This document shows, piece after piece, positions 1 through 44,339 of a DNA stretch of 44,339 nt. Location: IMG/VR virus record IMGVR_UViG_2923286960_000001; one strand, written 5' to 3'. The notes under the pieces are model-generated. The model ran no database searches, was not told where the DNA came from, and worked only from the letters and a program-made list of their open reading frames with translations. The number at the start of each line of letters is the position of its first letter. Position 1 is the stretch's first letter. A program made the position numbers and the translations under genes. Origin of the DNA: a virus. Its lineage: Duplodnaviria > Heunggongvirae > Uroviricota > Caudoviricetes.

Positions 1-1164
1 TTACGCCTTCTTTATATCCTCCATAATTCCACAGTGGGACATATTTGGGACATTATCACCAAAAATGTCGTCTATTTTCCTTGCATGCTCTGTCAAATGA
101 TTAGGCGCAAGGTGAGCATACCTACGAACCATTTCTATGGACTCCCATCCGCCCATTTCCTGAAGCACAGATAATGGGACGCCTGACTGGATCAGCCAGC
201 TTGCCCAGGTGTGTCTGAGGTCATGGAAACGGAAATCTTCAATTCCTGCACGACGACAAGCTGATAGCCATGATGTCTTGCTGTCGATGCGCATCTTCCT
301 GACCGCAGGCGTTGATGTTCCATCTGCTCGCTTAGCCGCCTTGGTATGTACAAACACCCATTTGTGATGCTTGCCTATTTGATCACGCAACACTTTACAG
401 GCGGTATCGTTCAGCGCCACACCAATGGCGCGGTTTGATTTGCTCTCTTCTGGATTCACCCAGGCAACTCGTCGCTGCATGTCGATTTGTTGCCATTCCA
501 GATTTATGATGTTCGACTTTCTCAGACCAGTTGCCAGCGCAAACTTGACGACAGATTTCAGTGGTTCGGGGCACTCATCAATAAGGCGTTTTGCTTCCTC
601 CTTTTCCAGCCATCTGACTCGCTTGTTTCTGACCGCTGGTATCTTGATGACAGGCGCTTTTTCCAGCCACTTCCAGTCGCGTTCTGCAGCACGGAGAATG
701 GCCTTTATCATGGCAAGATGCTTTGCCTTTGTCTGAGTTGATACTGGCTTTGGTTCATAAACAGGCGGTTCTTTACCTTTCCTGATGGCGGCCTGAACTT
801 TCTGTTTCCATATTTCTTTCGTCTTTCTGTTATGCATTCTGCTTACAGCAGAGTAAATCTTTGCCTCCGAGATATCTTTAAGCCTTATACCCTCAAAATG
901 TTCAAGCCAGAACTCAATCCGGCTTTTATCTGAATCGAGAGATTTTTTATCAGCTTTTTCCTCAAGCCATCTTAGGCAGGCCTCTTCAAAAGTGACATCA
1001 GGTAAATCCCCTAGCTTTTCTACTCGCCAGAGTTCTGCTTTTCGCTTGTCGTGCAACTCCTGAGCTTGCCGCTTGTCCTTTGTGCCAAGAGATTCCTTAA
1101 TTCGTTTCCCGCCCGGGAGCGAATACGAGGCATACCATATTTCATTTCTGCGGAAGAGTGACAT
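1..1164 (-). CDS. int: tyrosine-type site-specific integrase
   Basis: 387-aa ORF; C-terminal catalytic signature HDLRHT ... RYAHL (HxxR / Y); sits next to an excisionase ORF at the prophage end. Stop codon is at window position 1-3. Confidence 0.9.
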
Positions 1165-7803: not shown

Positions 7804-8355
7804 GTGGGTAAGCATCACTGGAAAATAGAAAAACAGCCTGAGTGGTACGTGAAAGCTGTCAGAAAAACTATCGCAGCGTTGCCGGGGGGTTACGCTGAAG
7901 CTGCTGACTGGCTGGACGTAACAGAGAACGCATTATTTAACCGCCTTCGTGCCGATGGCGATCAGATTTTCCCGCTGGGATGGGCAATGGTTTTACAGCG
8001 TGCTGGTGGCACTCACTTCATTGCTGATGCTGTGGCGCAGTCTGCAAATGGCGTATTTGTGTCTCTTCCTGACGTCGAGGATGTGGACAACGCCGATATT
8101 AACCAGCGTCTGCTGGAAGTCATTGAACAGATCGGCAGTTATTCAAAACAGATTCGTTCAGCAATCGAAGACGGTGTAGTGGAACCGCATGAGAAGACAG
8201 CAATTAACGACGAGCTGTATCTCTCAATTTCGAAGCTGCAGGAGCATGCAGCACTGGTCTACAAAATCTTTTGCATTTCAGAAAGTAATGACGCCCGCGA
8301 GTGTGCAGCTCCGGGCGCCGTGGCGTGTCGTGACTGTGGAGAAACTAACGCATGA
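7804..8355 (+). CDS. CII-like early regulatory protein (YdaT-like)
   Basis: GTG start with GAGGAG 6 nt upstream, just after the cro stop; the ORF track start at 7693 overlaps cro and lacks an SD. Confidence 0.6.
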
Positions 8356-8690
8356 ACAGTTTAACAACACACTACCGTCGCTCGCAACTGATTGCGCTTC
8401 CTGTACCGGGTGGAAAAGCGAAGGTGGAATATTGCTATGCAGTGAATGTACCAGGTGACAGGGAAATTGTAACCCACAGCTTTGCTGAGTGGGCTGTGGG
8501 TGATTTCAACCGGCAGAAGGAGACAGTCCTTTGCGACAAGTTAACCGCTGGTTCAAAGATCACTACGGAGTGCCCGTCAGAGTCATTCGTTGGGAACCGG
8601 AAACACAACGTGTTATCTACCTCCGCGAAGGCTATGAGCATGAGTGCTTCAGCCCGCTCGAACAGTTTCGTCGTAAATTCAGGGAAATAG
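8352..8690 (+). CDS. hypothetical protein; probably frameshifted or two overlapping small genes (see findings)
   Basis: ATG overlaps the upstream stop (ATGA); translation becomes low-complexity after about residue 60, while the +2 frame from TTG 8531 (AAGGAG SD) to 8710 reads protein-like. Confidence 0.35.
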
Positions 8691-8699
8691 AGGTCGGTC

Positions 8700-9641
8700 A
8701 TGAGCACTAAATTAACCGGCTATGTATGGGATGGTTGCGCTGCATCAGGCATGAAATTATCCAGCGTGGCAATTATGGCCCGCCTGGCTGATTTCAGTAA
8801 TGACGAAGGTGTGTGCTGGCCATCAATTGAAACCATTGCCCGCCAGATTGGCGCGGGGATGAGTACCGTCAGAACGGCTATCGCATGGCTGGAAGCAGAA
8901 GGCTGGTTAACGCGTAGGGCGCGTCGCCAGGGTAACCGCAATGCGTCGAATGTTTATCAGCTTAACGTTGCGAAGCTTCAGGCAGCGGCATTTTCTCAAC
9001 TGTCAGATTCTGACCCGTCAAAATCTGACGCATCAAAATCTGACCCGTCAAAATTTGATGCGTCGAAATCTGGCAAAAAAGCGGGTTTTCACCCGTCAGA
9101 ATCTGGTGGGGATCCGTCAGTAAAATCAAAACATGATCCGTCAGATAAAAAAACTTCTCGTCCGGACGCTTCGCAACCGGACACGCAGACGGCTGAACAG
9201 GATTTTTTAACTCGCCATCCTGATGCGGTTGTATTCAGCCCTAAAAAGCGCCAGTGGGGGACGCAGGATGATTTGACCTGCGCACAGTGGCTCTGGAAAA
9301 AAATCATCGCCCTGTACGAGCATGCCGCCGAATGTGACGGCGAGGTGGTTCGTCCCAAAGAACCGAACTGGATAGCCTGGGCAAACGAAATTCGCCTGAT
9401 GTGTGTGCAGGATGGTCGTACTCATAAACAAATCTGCGAGATGTACAGCCGCGTCAGTCGCGATCCGTTCTGGTGCCGTAACGTGCTCAGCCCGTCGAAG
9501 CTGCGGGAAAAATGGGATGAGCTTTCCCTGCGCTTATCGCCGTCCGTCAGCACGTACACCGAAAAACGCGAAGACCCGTACTTCAAAGCCAGTTACGACA
9601 ACGTGGACTACAGCCAGATCCCGGCAGGATTCAGGGGGTGA
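8700..9641 (+). CDS. replication initiator (lambda O-like, N-terminal HTH; contains the origin iterons)
   Basis: 313-aa ORF; N-terminal HTH region (CWPSIETIARQIGAGMSTVRTAIAWLEAEGW); internal tandem repeats encode SKSD-type peptide repeats. Confidence 0.75.
   Translation: MSTKLTGYVWDGCAASGMKLSSVAIMARLADFSNDEGVCWPSIETIARQIGAGMSTVRTAIAWLEAEGWLTRRARRQGNRNASNVYQLNVAKLQAAAFSQLSDSDPSKSDASKSDPSKFDASKSGKKAGFHPSESGGDPSVKSKHDPSDKKTSRPDASQPDTQTAEQDFLTRHPDAVVFSPKKRQWGTQDDLTCAQWLWKKIIALYEHAAECDGEVVRPKEPNWIAWANEIRLMCVQDGRTHKQICEMYSRVSRDPFWCRNVLSPSKLREKWDELSLRLSPSVSTYTEKREDPYFKASYDNVDYSQIPAGFRG
9011..9070. repeat. four tandem 15-bp iterons (candidate ori) inside the O-like gene
   Basis: TGACCCGTCAAAATC / TGACGCATCAAAATC / TGACCCGTCAAAATT / TGATGCGTCGAAATC, followed by an A-rich stretch and degenerate copies to about 9140. 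Confidence 0.55.
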
Positions 9642-39527: not shown

Positions 39528-41924
39528 ATGGCAGTAAAGATTTCAGGTGTACTGAAAGACGGCACAGGAAAACCGGTACAGAACTGCTCAATCCAGCTGA
39601 AAGCAAAACGTAACAGCACCACGGTTGTGGTAAACACGGTGGCCTCAGAAAATCCGGATGAAGCCGGGCGTTACAGTATGGATGTTGAGTATGGCCAGTA
39701 CAGCGTTATCCTGCTGGTTGAAGGTTTTCCGCCTTCACATGCCGGGACCATCACCGTGTATGAAGATTCTAAGCCGGGGACGCTGAATGATTTTCTCGGT
39801 GCCATGACGGAAGATGATGTCATGCCGGAGGCATTGCGTCGTTTTGAGGAAATGGTGGAAGAAGCGGCACGCAACGCTGAAGCCGCCTCTCAGAGCGCAG
39901 CGGCGGCAAAGAAATCCGAAACTGCAGCGGCATCATCGAAGAACGCGGCGAAAACCTCAGAAACGAATGCAGCTAATAGTGCACAGGCGGCAGCGACCTC
40001 AAAGACTGCATCGGCAAACTCCGCGACAGCAGCCAAAAAATCAGAAACCAACGCGAAAAATAGCGAGACAGCCGCAAAGACGAGCGAAACCAACGCAAAG
40101 TCCAGCCAGACGGCAGCGAAAACCAGCGAAACGAATGCCAAAGCCAGTGAAACTGCGGCAAAAAACAGCCAGGTTGCAGCAGCCCAAAGCGAGAGCGCGG
40201 CAGCCGGTTCTGCGACTTCAGCAGCTGGATCAGCAACTGCTGCGGCTAACAGCCAGAAAGCTGCGAAGACGAGTGAAACTAACGCAAAGTCCAGCCAGAC
40301 GGCAGCGAAGACCAGCGAAACGAATGCCAAAGCCAGCGAAACTGCGGCGAAAAACAGTCAGGATGCAGCAGCCCAAAGCGAGAGTGCTGCAGCTGGTTCT
40401 GCAAGCGCGGCGGCTGCTTCTGCCACTGCATCAGCCAACAGTCAAAAAGCAGCAAAAACCAGTGAAACCAATGCAAAGACAAGCGAGACTGCAGCGGCGA
40501 ACTCGGCGAAAGCATCGGCAGCAAGCCAGACAGCAGCTAAAGCAAGTGAAGACGCAGCCAGAGAGTATGCAAGTCAGGCAGCAGAGCCGTATAAATATGT
40601 CTTACAGCCACTGCCTGATGTGTGGATACCGTTTAACGATTCACTGGATATGATTACGGGCTTTTCGCCGTCATATAAAAAAATTGTTATTGGTGATGAT
40701 GAAATAACGATGCCTGGCGACAAGGTTGTTAAGTTTAAACGCGCATCAACTGCCACATATATCAATAAATCAGGCGTATTTAGTGTTGCTAAAATTGATG
40801 AGCCACGATTTGAAAAAGAAGGTTTATTGATTGAAGGACAGCGCACTAACTATTTTGTTAAATCCAATACTCCCGCTGAATGGACGAGTACCAGCAATAT
40901 CGATAAAACTAATAATGGTGTTGATGAATTTGGTTTTTCATATGCCAAAATGCGAACAAAAGATAATATGACAGGACAATCATCTGCACTTAGTCTGCAT
41001 ACATGCAGTGCATCCCGGGGGATTGATGTTAGTGGCGATAATAAGTATTGCACTGTTTCATGCAGGGTTAAAGCTCCTGATGGTCTTCGTTGTCGTTTGC
41101 GTTTTGAAAAATACGATGGGTCGGTTTATACATTTTTAGGAGATGCTTATTTAACTTTCGGAACTCTGATAATAGAAAAAACTGGCGGGGCAGCCAATAG
41201 AATAGCAGCTACTGCAACTAAAGATCCGGTTACAGGGTGGATTTTCTATGAGGCAACTATAGAAGCTGTTGAAGGTGAAACCTTAATTGGCGCAATGATT
41301 CAGTATGCGCCGAAAAAAGGTGGTATAACTGAAGCGGGAGATTATATTTACCTTGCAACACCACAATTTGAAAACGGCGGATGTGCTTCATCTTTTGTTA
41401 TTACGACAACTGCACCCGCAACCCGCTCCAGTGATATGGTGACGATCCCAACTGAAAATAATATCTATAATAGACCGCTTACGTGTCTTGTCGAGGTTAA
41501 TAGAAATTGGGGCGATATTCCTCCTAATGTAGCACCGCGTATTTTTGATTTTTCTGGTGTGCCACCTATTGAGTCAATTACATACGCTTTTAACACAACT
41601 GAGAAATATTACGGTCAGCTTTATATGCAAACTTATAAAGCGTCGACAAGTACTTACGTTTCTAGTGTGTTTGCTGGTCGAACTGATGTTCGAAAATTCA
41701 TTGGTGGTTTTAATATTTATTCTGATGGTACTAAACGAGTAGTTTCTAACGGTGAGGCTACTAAAACTATGAAAACGGAGTGGACGGGCGTAAAAACACG
41801 GACCTTTATTCGAATTGGAGGTCAAGCCACATCGGGAACTCGTCATCTATTCGGCCATTTGAGAAATCTTCGTCTCTGGCATAAAGAATTAACTGATGCG
41901 CAAATGGGGGAGAGTATTAAATGA
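39528..41924 (+). CDS. stf: side tail fibre protein with internal tandem repeats and a divergent low-GC C-terminal domain
   Basis: N-terminal about 120 aa lambda Stf-like; central Ala/Ser/Thr-rich shaft with KTSETNAK repeats; C-terminal about 440 aa encoded by AT-rich DNA. Confidence 0.85.
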   Translation: MAVKISGVLKDGTGKPVQNCSIQLKAKRNSTTVVVNTVASENPDEAGRYSMDVEYGQYSVILLVEGFPPSHAGTITVYEDSKPGTLNDFLGAMTEDDVMPEALRRFEEMVEEAARNAEAASQSAAAAKKSETAAASSKNAAKTSETNAANSAQAAATSKTASANSATAAKKSETNAKNSETAAKTSETNAKSSQTAAKTSETNAKASETAAKNSQVAAAQSESAAAGSATSAAGSATAAANSQKAAKTSETNAKSSQTAAKTSETNAKASETAAKNSQDAAAQSESAAAGSASAAAASATASANSQKAAKTSETNAKTSETAAANSAKASAASQTAAKASEDAAREYASQAAEPYKYVLQPLPDVWIPFNDSLDMITGFSPSYKKIVIGDDEITMPGDKVVKFKRASTATYINKSGVFSVAKIDEPRFEKEGLLIEGQRTNYFVKSNTPAEWTSTSNIDKTNNGVDEFGFSYAKMRTKDNMTGQSSALSLHTCSASRGIDVSGDNKYCTVSCRVKAPDGLRCRLRFEKYDGSVYTFLGDAYLTFGTLIIEKTGGAANRIAATATKDPVTGWIFYEATIEAVEGETLIGAMIQYAPKKGGITEAGDYIYLATPQFENGGCASSFVITTTAPATRSSDMVTIPTENNIYNRPLTCLVEVNRNWGDIPPNVAPRIFDFSGVPPIESITYAFNTTEKYYGQLYMQTYKASTSTYVSSVFAGRTDVRKFIGGFNIYSDGTKRVVSNGEATKTMKTEWTGVKTRTFIRIGGQATSGTRHLFGHLRNLRLWHKELTDAQMGESIK
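40077..40454 (+). repeat. 2 x 189-bp in-frame tandem repeat within stf
   Basis: Unit at 40077 repeats at 40266 with few substitutions; nested 27-bp sub-repeats. Confidence 0.75.
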
Positions 41925-42202
41925 AAGATTTAACACTCAAATTTGCAGACAGGGCCGACTTTTCGGCCTTTATGGAGAGCATTGGCTATTATGATGACGA
42001 GTCGATGCAGGATGATATTCTTATTGACGTGATAGGTAATGTGTACAAAGAAACCGGAGAACTTACTGAAGATGGCGAGCCGGTATGTGTTAAGGAGGAC
42101 GGATATTTTGTAAATGTGCGCATCATTAATGATTCGCAAATATCGTCATTATTCGATGAACACGCGGTTGCTGTTGAGCATCAACTCCGTAGCTGGATGT
42201 GA
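41921..42202 (+). CDS. hypothetical acidic protein (93 aa) coupled to stf
   Basis: ATG overlaps the stf stop (ATGA); AT-rich. Confidence 0.5.
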   Translation: MKDLTLKFADRADFSAFMESIGYYDDESMQDDILIDVIGNVYKETGELTEDGEPVCVKEDGYFVNVRIINDSQISSLFDEHAVAVEHQLRSWM

Positions 42203-42211
42203 GGAAGAAAA

Positions 42212-42916
42212 ATGGCTACATCGACAGTAATTCCTGATGACATCAAAACGCTAAAGGGAGATGTCAGTAAGGCAAAGGAAGATATTTCCTCAATTAACGT
42301 AAAAGTATCAACGCTTCAGACTGATATGGACAGTGCAAAGCAGGATATCAGTACCAGATACACAAAAACAGAAGTGGATAATAAGCTGAAAAACAAAGTG
42401 GAAGTGAACGATCTGGAAAGTGGTCGTTATGGCGGAGATTTTTACCCGCTGACTGGCCGTGAAGCGTTTTATTTATGGGGATTGGGCACAACTACAGCGG
42501 CGGCAAATCTTTATCTTAATCCTGACCCTGCAATTTCGTCTGTGCTGCGGTCAACATCGTCTATCCGCTATAAACATTCAGTAGAGACGATAGATTCAGA
42601 GCACGCCGATCTCATTTTCAGGATGCGCCCTGTGTGGTACAGGTCGCAATGCGAAAATGACAGGCGTGACTGGGGATTCTATGGATTGATTGCCGAGGAA
42701 GTAGGAGAAATTGCCCCTCAGTTTGTTCACTGGCGACCAGCCAACGAAGATGATGCACCGGAAACCATTTCCAGCAATGGCCTTGTTGCCGAAGGTGTAA
42801 TGTACGAACGTCTGGTTGTTCCACTGATTCACCATATCCAGAAACTGACTGAAAGAGTTGATGAACTTGAGTCAGAATTGAAGTTGTTATCAACTTCCCA
42901 AAGCGATATCGGATAA
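42212..42916 (+). CDS. short protein with C-terminal tail-fibre intramolecular-chaperone (peptidase S74-like) domain
   Basis: GAGGAAG SD; C-terminal pattern SSIRYKHSVETID ... GLIAEEVGEIAPQFV ... YERLVVPLIHHIQKLTERVDELE resembles autocleaving chaperone domains of fibres/tailspikes. Confidence 0.65.
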   Translation: MATSTVIPDDIKTLKGDVSKAKEDISSINVKVSTLQTDMDSAKQDISTRYTKTEVDNKLKNKVEVNDLESGRYGGDFYPLTGREAFYLWGLGTTTAAANLYLNPDPAISSVLRSTSSIRYKHSVETIDSEHADLIFRMRPVWYRSQCENDRRDWGFYGLIAEEVGEIAPQFVHWRPANEDDAPETISSNGLVAEGVMYERLVVPLIHHIQKLTERVDELESELKLLSTSQSDIG

Positions 42917-42926
42917 AGGAGGAGTA

Positions 42927-43220
42927 ATGGATATAACACCTTTTCTTCATGCGCTTTGTGCTGTGGCTGCGCAGGTAATGATTGGTCTTTTTGCCGGAAA
43001 CTGGGTTTACGGGGCGATAGCCGGTTGTACGTTCTTCATTGCGCGTGAACACACCCAGGCAGAATATCGCTGGATTGAAATGTTCGGGCATGGCAAGCGG
43101 ATTAACATGCCGTGGTGGGGCGGTTTTGATCCGCGTGTTTGGGATGTGGCAAGCCTGATAGATTTTGCTGTGCCGGTGGTGGCGTGTCTGCTGGTCTGGC
43201 TGTTGGTTAATCGTGGGTGA
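42927..43220 (+). CDS. small two-TM membrane protein (97 aa)
   Basis: AGGAGG SD 6 nt upstream; two hydrophobic helices flank a Trp-rich loop. Confidence 0.55.
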   Translation: MDITPFLHALCAVAAQVMIGLFAGNWVYGAIAGCTFFIAREHTQAEYRWIEMFGHGKRINMPWWGGFDPRVWDVASLIDFAVPVVACLLVWLLVNRG

Positions 43221-43230
43221 AAAAAGGTGA

Positions 43231-43359
43231 GCTGTATATGCAACGGAGGAAGAAACCCCGTTGCTGGAAGCCTGGAAAAAGTATCGGGTGTTGCTGAACC
43301 GTGTTGATACATCAACTGCACCTGATATTGAGTGGCCTACGAACCCTGTCAGGGAGTAA
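43231..43359 (+). pseudogene. tail fibre assembly gene (tfa) 3' remnant
   Basis: In-frame [39 protein letters not shown] matches the lambda Tfa C-terminus; in-frame stop immediately upstream, no start. Confidence 0.7.
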
Positions 43360-43372
43360 TCATTGGGATTAT

Positions 43373-43422
43373 GCCGCAGCACGTCTTAAGCAAGAACGTG
43401 CTGCGGTTGGATGCTATTTTTT
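43373..43422 (+). terminator. hairpin terminator between the tfa remnant and the convergent methyltransferase
   Basis: GCCGCAGCACG-n13-CGTGCTGCGG followed by a T-run. Confidence 0.4.
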
Positions 43423-44082
43423 CCCTGAAGCGGAAAACATTACTACAGTACCTTGAACCTTGGTTTTAACATTCTCGAAATGCTCTGAGAGTATATGTGT
43501 TAAGCCTTCTTCGGAATCTTTTGTGTTTGAAAAGATGCCTTTCTGATTGTAAATGCGCATCAGTTTTTGACCGAAGCTATTGTGCACAACTCCATCGCCA
43601 AGAATTGTGGCTCCGTATAGAGTTCCATCGTCAGTTAAGGCCTGCGCCGCATTGCGTATTACACAGCTTTTTGTAGATATATTTCCAGGCAGGCAGTGAA
43701 GAAGGTAAAACATGGAAATGGAATCAAATTGACCATGTAACGCCGCGGGATAAGGTTCAAAAACATCATGGCTAATTTTATGTTTAATTTTTGATTCCCC
43801 AGCCCTTGTAGATGCCGCGTTCAGGCTAGCTTCGTTCAAATCCATTAAAGATATCAGACTACTCTCAGGTACGTGAGTAAGGTAAAACCCAGTTCCAACA
43901 CCAATATCCAGATGGTTGTTACCTAAATGTTCCAGAAAGTGTGGAAGAAGGTGTTCCTTTGTAGGACATCCCCATGCAAGCCGATTTGATACTCCCAAAA
44001 CCCACCAGTCATAAAGCTTTAGGGTAAGTGGTGTGTAAATTTTAGCCCCATCATCTGTGTTTTTTTTCATTAATTTCACCAT
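43414..44082 (-). CDS. class I SAM-dependent methyltransferase
   Basis: 222 aa with motif I LDIGVGTGFY and downstream acidic residue; low GC; opposite strand to the tail genes. Confidence 0.75.
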   Translation of the reverse strand: MVKLMKKNTDDGAKIYTPLTLKLYDWWVLGVSNRLAWGCPTKEHLLPHFLEHLGNNHLDIGVGTGFYLTHVPESSLISLMDLNEASLNAASTRAGESKIKHKISHDVFEPYPAALHGQFDSISMFYLLHCLPGNISTKSCVIRNAAQALTDDGTLYGATILGDGVVHNSFGQKLMRIYNQKGIFSNTKDSEEGLTHILSEHFENVKTKVQGTVVMFSASGKK

Positions 44083-44138
44083 GTTATAGTTTTATTTGTG
44101 AATTAAATCAATTATGGCGATGAATTACAAGGGGTTAA

Positions 44139-44339
44139 ATGCTGCCGCAGCATAGCGATATTGAAATAGCCTGGTATGCTTCGATACAGCAGGAGCCGAA
44201 TGGCTGGAAGACCGTCACCACACAGTTCTACATCCAGGAATTCAGTGAGTATATTGCGCCACTGCAGGATGCTGGGAAATCGCAACGGAGGAAGAAAGAT
44301 CGTTGCTGGAGGCATGGAATAAATATCGGGTATTGTTGA
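44139..44339 (+). CDS. tfa-like gene, truncated by the window end and apparently frameshifted
   Basis: ...EYIAPLQDAGKS in one frame and EIATEEERSLLEAWNKYRVLL in the next correspond to lambda Tfa ...[30 protein letters not shown]...; about 8 nt missing around 44270. Confidence 0.45.
   Translation: MLPQHSDIEIAWYASIQQEPNGWKTVTTQFYIQEFSEYIAPLQDAGKSQRRKKDRCWRHGINIGYC

Follow-up and report, generated by a model that had tools for sequence, protein, structure and literature searches.

The viral DNA examined here (Caudoviricetes; 44,339 nucleotides, hereafter the window) carries on its minus strand an intact copy of ybcY, a gene that has already been named and annotated. We favor, with moderate confidence, the reading that this copy is a cargo methyltransferase gene of a DLP12-type lambdoid prophage, captured from a chromosome, equipped with its own promoter, and directed at a small-molecule substrate. 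Existing annotation of K-12, RefSeq, and phage records already names the gene, gives its class of fold, and places it between tfa remnants near ompT. An earlier sequence-only reading of the window (the first-pass annotation) described and interpreted the gene in a way that holds, and it goes beyond existing annotation only in that the copy is intact. It overlooked that the gene already bears the name ybcY, that DNA can be excluded as a substrate from the sequence, and that translation probably starts four codons further in. What we add is a probable correction of the start codon, a connection to promoter and H-NS results already in the literature, the ruling out of DNA as a substrate, and the result that ybcY has no conserved partner gene. 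The finding is an ordinary one with little weight as a discovery, and nothing in it makes the substrate question newly testable.

Identity and fold class of the ORF

Reading the minus strand from 44082 to 43414 gives an uninterrupted ORF of 222 codons, which corresponds to the 222-aa class I SAM-dependent methyltransferase annotated in RefSeq as WP_000239881.1. From position 42900 to 44339, the window DNA matches many E. coli chromosomes at 100% identity, including that of strain NCTC86, where the gene carries this same accession. In a pairwise alignment with K-12, near-identity extends from exactly the tfa 3' end (window position 43240) to the end of the window; K-12 ybcY (b0562) has ~99% DNA identity to the window copy and an identical promoter sequence. 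Because the K-12 locus is nearly identical and differs in ybcY by a 2-bp deletion, which destroys the Met5 ATG, and a few substitutions, we identify the ORF as the intact form of the gene. The K-12 reference has ybcY only as a pseudogene; therefore, work in K-12 is uninformative on function, and it is the window that holds the intact form. At ≥95% identity and ≥80% coverage, we found the ybcY ORF in 3798 of 5426 complete E. coli genomes (about 70%). Short contigs assigned to a "Bacillus sp." MAG and a "Planococcaceae" MAG also contain ybcY at 100% identity to E. coli, almost certainly as a result of contamination or misbinning.

By fold, the ~218-aa protein is a class I (Rossmann-fold) SAM-dependent methyltransferase; it has a single domain and is predicted to be soluble, to bind SAM, and to transfer its methyl group. 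The SAM-binding glycine loop, motif I, is LDIGVGTGFY at residues 58 to 67 (positions 43882 to 43911, minus strand), evident in the sequence and in the homolog alignment; the motif quoted in the first-pass annotation, DIGVGTGFY, comprises residues 59 to 67 of the 222-aa ORF. Within it, LDIGVGTG (residues 58 to 65) provides the E/D-x-G-x-G-x-G pattern that follows beta1, and D59, G61, G63, and G65 are invariant in an alignment of 30 homologs. YbcY also has the seven-stranded alpha/beta fold of the class. The best Pfam match to the ORF is Methyltransf_12 (E 3.8e-9, 37.6 bits, gathering cutoff 30), followed by Methyltransf_23 (28.8 bits, cutoff 27), Methyltransf_25 (27.7, cutoff 27), and Methyltransf_11 (24.6, cutoff 21.2). 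With motif I and four Pfam models above their cutoffs, the class I call is borne out. A profile search had been proposed as the way to classify the family; it returned these generic methyltransferase models and a full-length match to PHROG phrog_2132 ("unknown function"; profile positions 1 to 218 of 218, E 8e-157). The pI and hydrophobicity of YbcY rule out a membrane protein and do not discriminate between RNA and small-molecule substrates.

Genomic location of ybcY

The gene order in NCTC86 is J, lom, stf, two small ORFs, a tail-fiber-domain gene, a tfa fragment, the methyltransferase, a second tfa fragment, an alpha/beta hydrolase, ompT, envY, ybcH, and nfrA; on the chromosome, this is where the cryptic prophage DLP12 lies. 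At the same site, MG1655 has tfaD, ybcY (b0562, a pseudogene on the opposite strand), tfaX, appY, and ompT. K-12 DLP12 and the window are thus alike in their flanks (the tfaD 3' end, ybcY on the opposite strand, and tfaX, near ompT at the right prophage end), whereas K-12 has a whole tfaD and an in-frame tfaX and the window has only the last 120 nt of tfa upstream of ybcY and a tfaX with a 7-bp deletion. Other strains have ompT directly upstream of ybcY (see also PMC6854850). We propose that ybcY is a cargo gene of a DLP12-type lambdoid prophage and sits at its right end, between the tail-fiber genes and the att-side ompT cargo.

The first-pass annotation placed the methyltransferase on the strand opposite to the late genes, in low-GC DNA, between two tfa 3' remnants, and each element of this description proved correct. 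J, lom, and stf lie on the plus strand and the methyltransferase on the minus strand. The GC content of the ORF is 0.408 (GC3 0.359) versus 0.514 for the whole window. Both tfa remnants are real. The first, at 43240 to 43359 (plus strand), consists of the last 39 codons and the stop codon, corresponding by translation and K-12 alignment to the tfaD 3' end; its 39-residue translation differs from the K-12 TfaD C-terminus by one residue. The second, a tfaX-like remnant at 44139 to 44339 (plus strand), runs off the end of the window; by K-12 alignment and translation, its homology to the Tfa C-terminus begins at 44282, and positions 44282 to 44338 translate to ATEEERSLLEAWNKYRVLL. Relative to K-12 tfaX, a match to Pfam Caudo_TAP, this remnant has lost 7 bp (TAGATCT) in the region 44263 to 44270 and is therefore frameshifted in the window. 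Together, the two remnants form a 58-nt direct repeat with 84% identity, 1042 nt apart.

The tail-fiber-domain protein encoded upstream at 42212 to 42916 (plus strand, 234 aa) contains Peptidase_S74, the intramolecular chaperone of endosialidase (E 4.6e-6), and such a self-chaperoning fiber tip may be why only the last 120 nt of tfa are left upstream of ybcY. Between this fiber-tip gene and the tfa remnant is a hydrophobic ORF of 97 aa (42927 to 43220, plus strand) with a higher GC content of about 0.53; it has no Pfam match and is labeled "hypothetical" in NCTC86, ev243, and PhiR49_1. On the other side of ybcY, RefSeq calls a DinI-family fragment at 44157 to 44237 (minus strand), which we could not confirm: it had no Pfam match, and no BLASTP match to the DinI beside the Citrobacter homolog.

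We detected ybcY in 15 phage records, including ev243, 2G7b, several PhiR phages, Kati, and Turner, and found that 88 records share parts of the neighboring region. Phage PhiR49_1 is 99.8% identical to the window over 41000 to 44339, and its gene is labeled "YbcY". From the tail fibers toward attP/int, the ybcY phages carry ybcY, a tfa fragment, a 494-aa alpha/beta hydrolase (Abhydrolase_1 with a TAP-like C-terminus in ev243, PhiR49_1, and Turner), and ompT, all leftward except the tfa fragment. Viable temperate phages thus carry ompT between ybcY and attP/int, which makes OmpT phage-borne in ev243, PhiR49_1, and Turner. In Turner, a DNA invertase lies between tfa and ybcY. Of 173 confirmed relatives in IMG/VR, 80 were compared, and all of these are the 99 to 100% identical E. 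coli version, with no distant relatives among the 80. The window itself starts exactly at the end of a 387-aa ORF (1 to 1164, minus strand), where related phages have the integrase. Given this start and an end inside the tfaX remnant, the window spans int to just short of the ompT-side cargo rather than the whole element.

These features resemble those of lambda-type morons and b-region cargo genes (lom, bor, and, in DLP12-type phages, ompT): an extra, AT-rich gene lies between the tail fibers and att, is encoded on the opposite strand under a putative promoter of its own, and is found in some related phages but missing from others. In ybcY, the moron-like base composition (0.408 versus 0.514) goes together with uneven presence among related phages (15 versus 88 records). 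Known lambda-type morons encode envelope proteins with demonstrated phenotypes in the lysogen, whereas YbcY is a predicted cytoplasmic enzyme.

Start codon and promoter

The coding sequence of ybcY is probably 43414 to 44070 (minus strand, 218 aa), with the annotated start four codons too far upstream. The Met5-equivalent residue is the first residue in all 29 aligned homologs; in Citrobacter freundii, the upstream in-frame ATG is one codon closer, so its position is not conserved; and in E. coli strain A21 the RefSeq product is 218 aa. On this basis, we take Met5 (ATG at 44068 to 44070) as the probable start, and the intact protein would probably be translated from it. A Shine-Dalgarno-like GGTGA at 44076 to 44080 lies 5 nt upstream of the Met5 ATG.

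Immediately upstream is a putative sigma-70 promoter, TTGATT-17-TATAAC (44083 to 44111, minus strand), with its -10 hexamer at 44083 to 44088. This is the one exact match in the window, with 0 expected by chance. TATAAC lies right against the annotated ATG, which would put the transcript start past that ATG and immediately ahead of Met5. The same TTGATT-17-TATAAC appears in a published list of constitutive RpoD promoters, assigned to ybcY in the K-12 ybcY/tfaX spacer, to which RNA polymerase (RNAP-RpoD) bound in vitro in genomic SELEX; the spacer was also marked as H-NS-bound by the same approach (Shimada et al. 2014, PMC3946193). The spacer upstream of ybcY in the window is nearly identical to that of K-12. 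A later study in the same series reports an RpoS-holoenzyme peak at 582672, which its authors assign to appY (PMC5493296); in MG1655 coordinates, this position falls inside ybcY. Transcription would run leftward from the sigma-70 promoter, independent of the late operon, and because the DNA is AT-rich, ybcY is probably partly silenced by H-NS. A second promoter-like site, TTAACC-16-CATAAT (44111 to 44138, minus strand), is a consensus match only; the scan that yielded it gave 2 sites versus 2.4 expected, and the site has no weight on its own.

Our terminator scan detected no canonical terminator after the ybcY ORF. The tfa and ybcY stop codons are separated by a 54-nt spacer, which contains a strong hairpin with a 14-pair stem (43373 to 43407); its centroid energy is -24.4 kcal/mol (z -4.0) on the plus strand and -25.4 kcal/mol (z -4.5) on the minus strand. 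On the minus strand the hairpin is followed by no U-tract, whereas on the plus strand a T-run occurs 9 nt later. Homology between Citrobacter and the window ends 8 nt past the ybcY stop, before the hairpin, and reaches >150 nt upstream of the ORF. These boundaries indicate that the mobile unit is the promoter region plus the ORF, a block conserved in Citrobacter, and that the hairpin probably terminates the tfa/late transcript and lies outside the ybcY unit. The view of ybcY as an independently expressed moron, put forward in the first-pass annotation, thus receives indirect support from its own promoter sequence and the published K-12 binding data.

Homologs and gene neighborhoods

A word-indexed search retrieved 2296 relatives, and an exhaustive profile search gave 1749 clusters at 50% identity, 421 of them with E <1e-30. 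Relatives at 45 to 75% identity are stand-alone chromosomal genes in Salmonella (STM1638; PMC11340327), Enterobacter, Erwinia, and Yersinia, to which a scan of species genomes added Proteus, Pantoea, Pasteurellaceae, Pseudomonas, Dyella, Oxalobacteraceae, and others. STM1638 and the other chromosomal homologs align with YbcY over their full length at 45 to 68% identity and share its N-terminal YDWWV helix, motif I, LLHCLPG, and the YNxKGIFSN loop. Unlike ybcY, STM1638 and the Enterobacterales, Pseudomonas, Dyella, and Oxalobacteraceae genes lie in ordinary chromosomal contexts that differ by genus, outside any prophage. Copies with 79 to 90% identity occur in Citrobacter and Salmonella in island-like or prophage-remnant contexts, beside DinI or PerC genes. 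Distant members come from fungi, Acidobacteria, and marine bacteria, with source names of only "UbiE", "COG0500", or "hypothetical". Longer members of the family are fusions with methyltransferase domains only, save one fungal RCC1 fusion.

This distribution suggests that ybcY was captured from a stand-alone chromosomal gene family widespread in Proteobacteria (STM1638 and others). Capture from such a family would make a benefit to the lysogen, metabolic or in detoxification, more likely than a role in phage replication. The dN/dS ratio is ~0.1 against the Citrobacter, Enterobacter, and Klebsiella genes, with dS near saturation, and the homolog alignment has 58 invariant columns; the YbcY protein family is therefore under purifying selection. 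Among the invariant residues are Y24, D25, W26, W27, N33, W37, C39, H129, C130, N168, Y178, N179, K181, N186, and D189. Variation within E. coli is too low to gauge selection. The YbcY/STM1638 family is widespread and well conserved and makes a fair target for enzyme-function discovery.

No conserved partner gene emerged when we considered both nearest neighbors at 71 loci in other species: the top family accounted for 6 of 138 neighbors, and that maximum reflects synteny within single genera. We rejected an esterase/lipase partner (a methyl-ester cycle), which the first five contexts had suggested by the presence of a hydrolase within a few kb, given that the 71-locus scan found no conserved family. 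In Salmonella, STM1638 has an ABC-transporter/PMT_2 cluster on one side and cybB on the other, and the sRNA gene rydC and cybB lie directly downstream of it (Salmonella locus 8001 to 9464). RydC activates cfa, which encodes another SAM-dependent enzyme that acts on lipids (PMC11340327); the adjacency of STM1638 and rydC is probably a coincidence.

Candidate substrates and alternative readings

The substrate of YbcY is most likely a small molecule or metabolite that is common enough to matter across Proteobacteria. With SAM as the donor, YbcY would most likely methylate a small metabolite, either soluble or lipid-like, at an O, N, C, or S atom. Its best match among solved structures is JHAMT (PDB 7ec0 and 7ebs; profile E 1.3e-5, Foldseek E 8.8e-12), with which it has the Rossmann core in common and whose LHW aligns with the LHC of YbcY. 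Identity is ~21% in the core only (TM 0.55), and the N-terminal substrate helices and the beta5-beta6 insertion of JHAMT are not common to YbcY; YbcY thus resembles JHAMT without belonging to its family. As a first guess, and a weak one, the reaction would be carboxyl O-methylation of the JHAMT type. YbcY did not qualify as PmtA, with 15.6 bits against NF045882 (NCBIfam equivalog cutoff 390) and a structural TM of only 0.61 to 0.65 to 8ys9, nor as RquA (16.9 bits, cutoff 175) or CpaM (17.4 bits, cutoff 180).

In the searchable literature on ybcY, STM1638, and c0651, we found no functional study; what it offers is promoter SELEX, a phenotype-negative mutant, deletions, one microarray fold-change, and mentions in genomic-context and sRNA-catalogue work. 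The one assay of a ybcY mutant that we found, for Hha toxicity, gave no phenotype and was done in K-12, where the gene is a pseudogene.

Methylation of RNA (tRNA or rRNA) or protein, instead of a small molecule, is possible but unlikely. YbcY consists of one catalytic domain of 218 aa and lacks any additional domain for binding RNA, its best matches at the sequence level and in Foldseek are small-molecule enzymes, and no NCBIfam RNA-methyltransferase model matched it. The gene is also dispensable, being a pseudogene in K-12 and without a match in about 30% of complete E. coli genomes.

We consider it improbable that ybcY is a relic in E. coli, intact in sequence and unexpressed or unused in lysogens. 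The decay of the K-12 copy would fit a relic, as would the copies that are 2 bp shorter, as in the K-12 deletion, in 4 of 39 matches (about 10%) in an evenly spaced sample; so would H-NS binding at the promoter region, the phenotype-negative mutant, and variation within E. coli too low for selection to be measured. Against this, the ORF in the window is intact, 3287 of 3836 matching E. coli records are ≥99% identical, the family-wide dN/dS is ~0.1, the gene is carried in viable phages, and RNA polymerase binds its promoter in vitro.

A cargo gene with a small-molecule substrate leaves room for a more specific proposal, to which we give little credence: YbcY would be a lysogenic-conversion enzyme that methylates, and so neutralizes or alters, a specific small molecule, from either the host or the environment, or the head group of a membrane lipid, acting alongside the nearby cargo products OmpT and, in some phages, the 494-aa hydrolase as a cassette that protects the lysogen from host antimicrobials. 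If true, this would give a role to a conserved family that occurs across Proteobacteria and that about 70% of complete E. coli genomes carry.

It is very improbable that YbcY uses the SAM fold for something other than methyl transfer, such as amino transfer (RquA), carboxy-SAM synthesis (CmoA), or cyclization (SpnF). Proteins with this fold catalyze methyl transfer far more often than any other reaction, the SAM-binding motifs of YbcY are canonical, and its matches to such enzymes fall far below the family cutoffs (RquA, 16.9 versus 175).

Orphan DNA methylases are frequent in phages, and the first-pass annotation had left open whether the substrate is a small molecule, protein, RNA, or DNA. 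We regard DNA as effectively excluded, whether the role would be to shield phage or host DNA from restriction or an epigenetic one. A regex search of YbcY found no N6-adenine/N4-cytosine motif IV, (D/N/S)-P-P-(Y/F/W), and no C5-cytosine PC(Q/K) motif, and the single ENV tripeptide (203 to 205), the pattern of C5-cytosine motif VI, lies in a variable stretch of the alignment. A length of 218 aa has no room for a target-recognition domain, the top structural matches include no DNA methyltransferase, and the homologs are stand-alone chromosomal genes with no restriction partner. A role in anti-phage defense was likewise rejected, with PADLOC giving only mad2 (14.3 bits, E 0.003).

Elsewhere among the tail genes, the ORF at 39528 to 41924 (plus strand) encodes a 798-aa side tail-fiber N-terminal protein with long Ala/Ser/Thr/Lys-rich repeats such as KTSETNAKSSQTAAKTSETNAKASETAAKNSQ. 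The stretch that encodes these repeats, especially 39800 to 40550, produces an extreme AT skew of 0.5 to 0.6.
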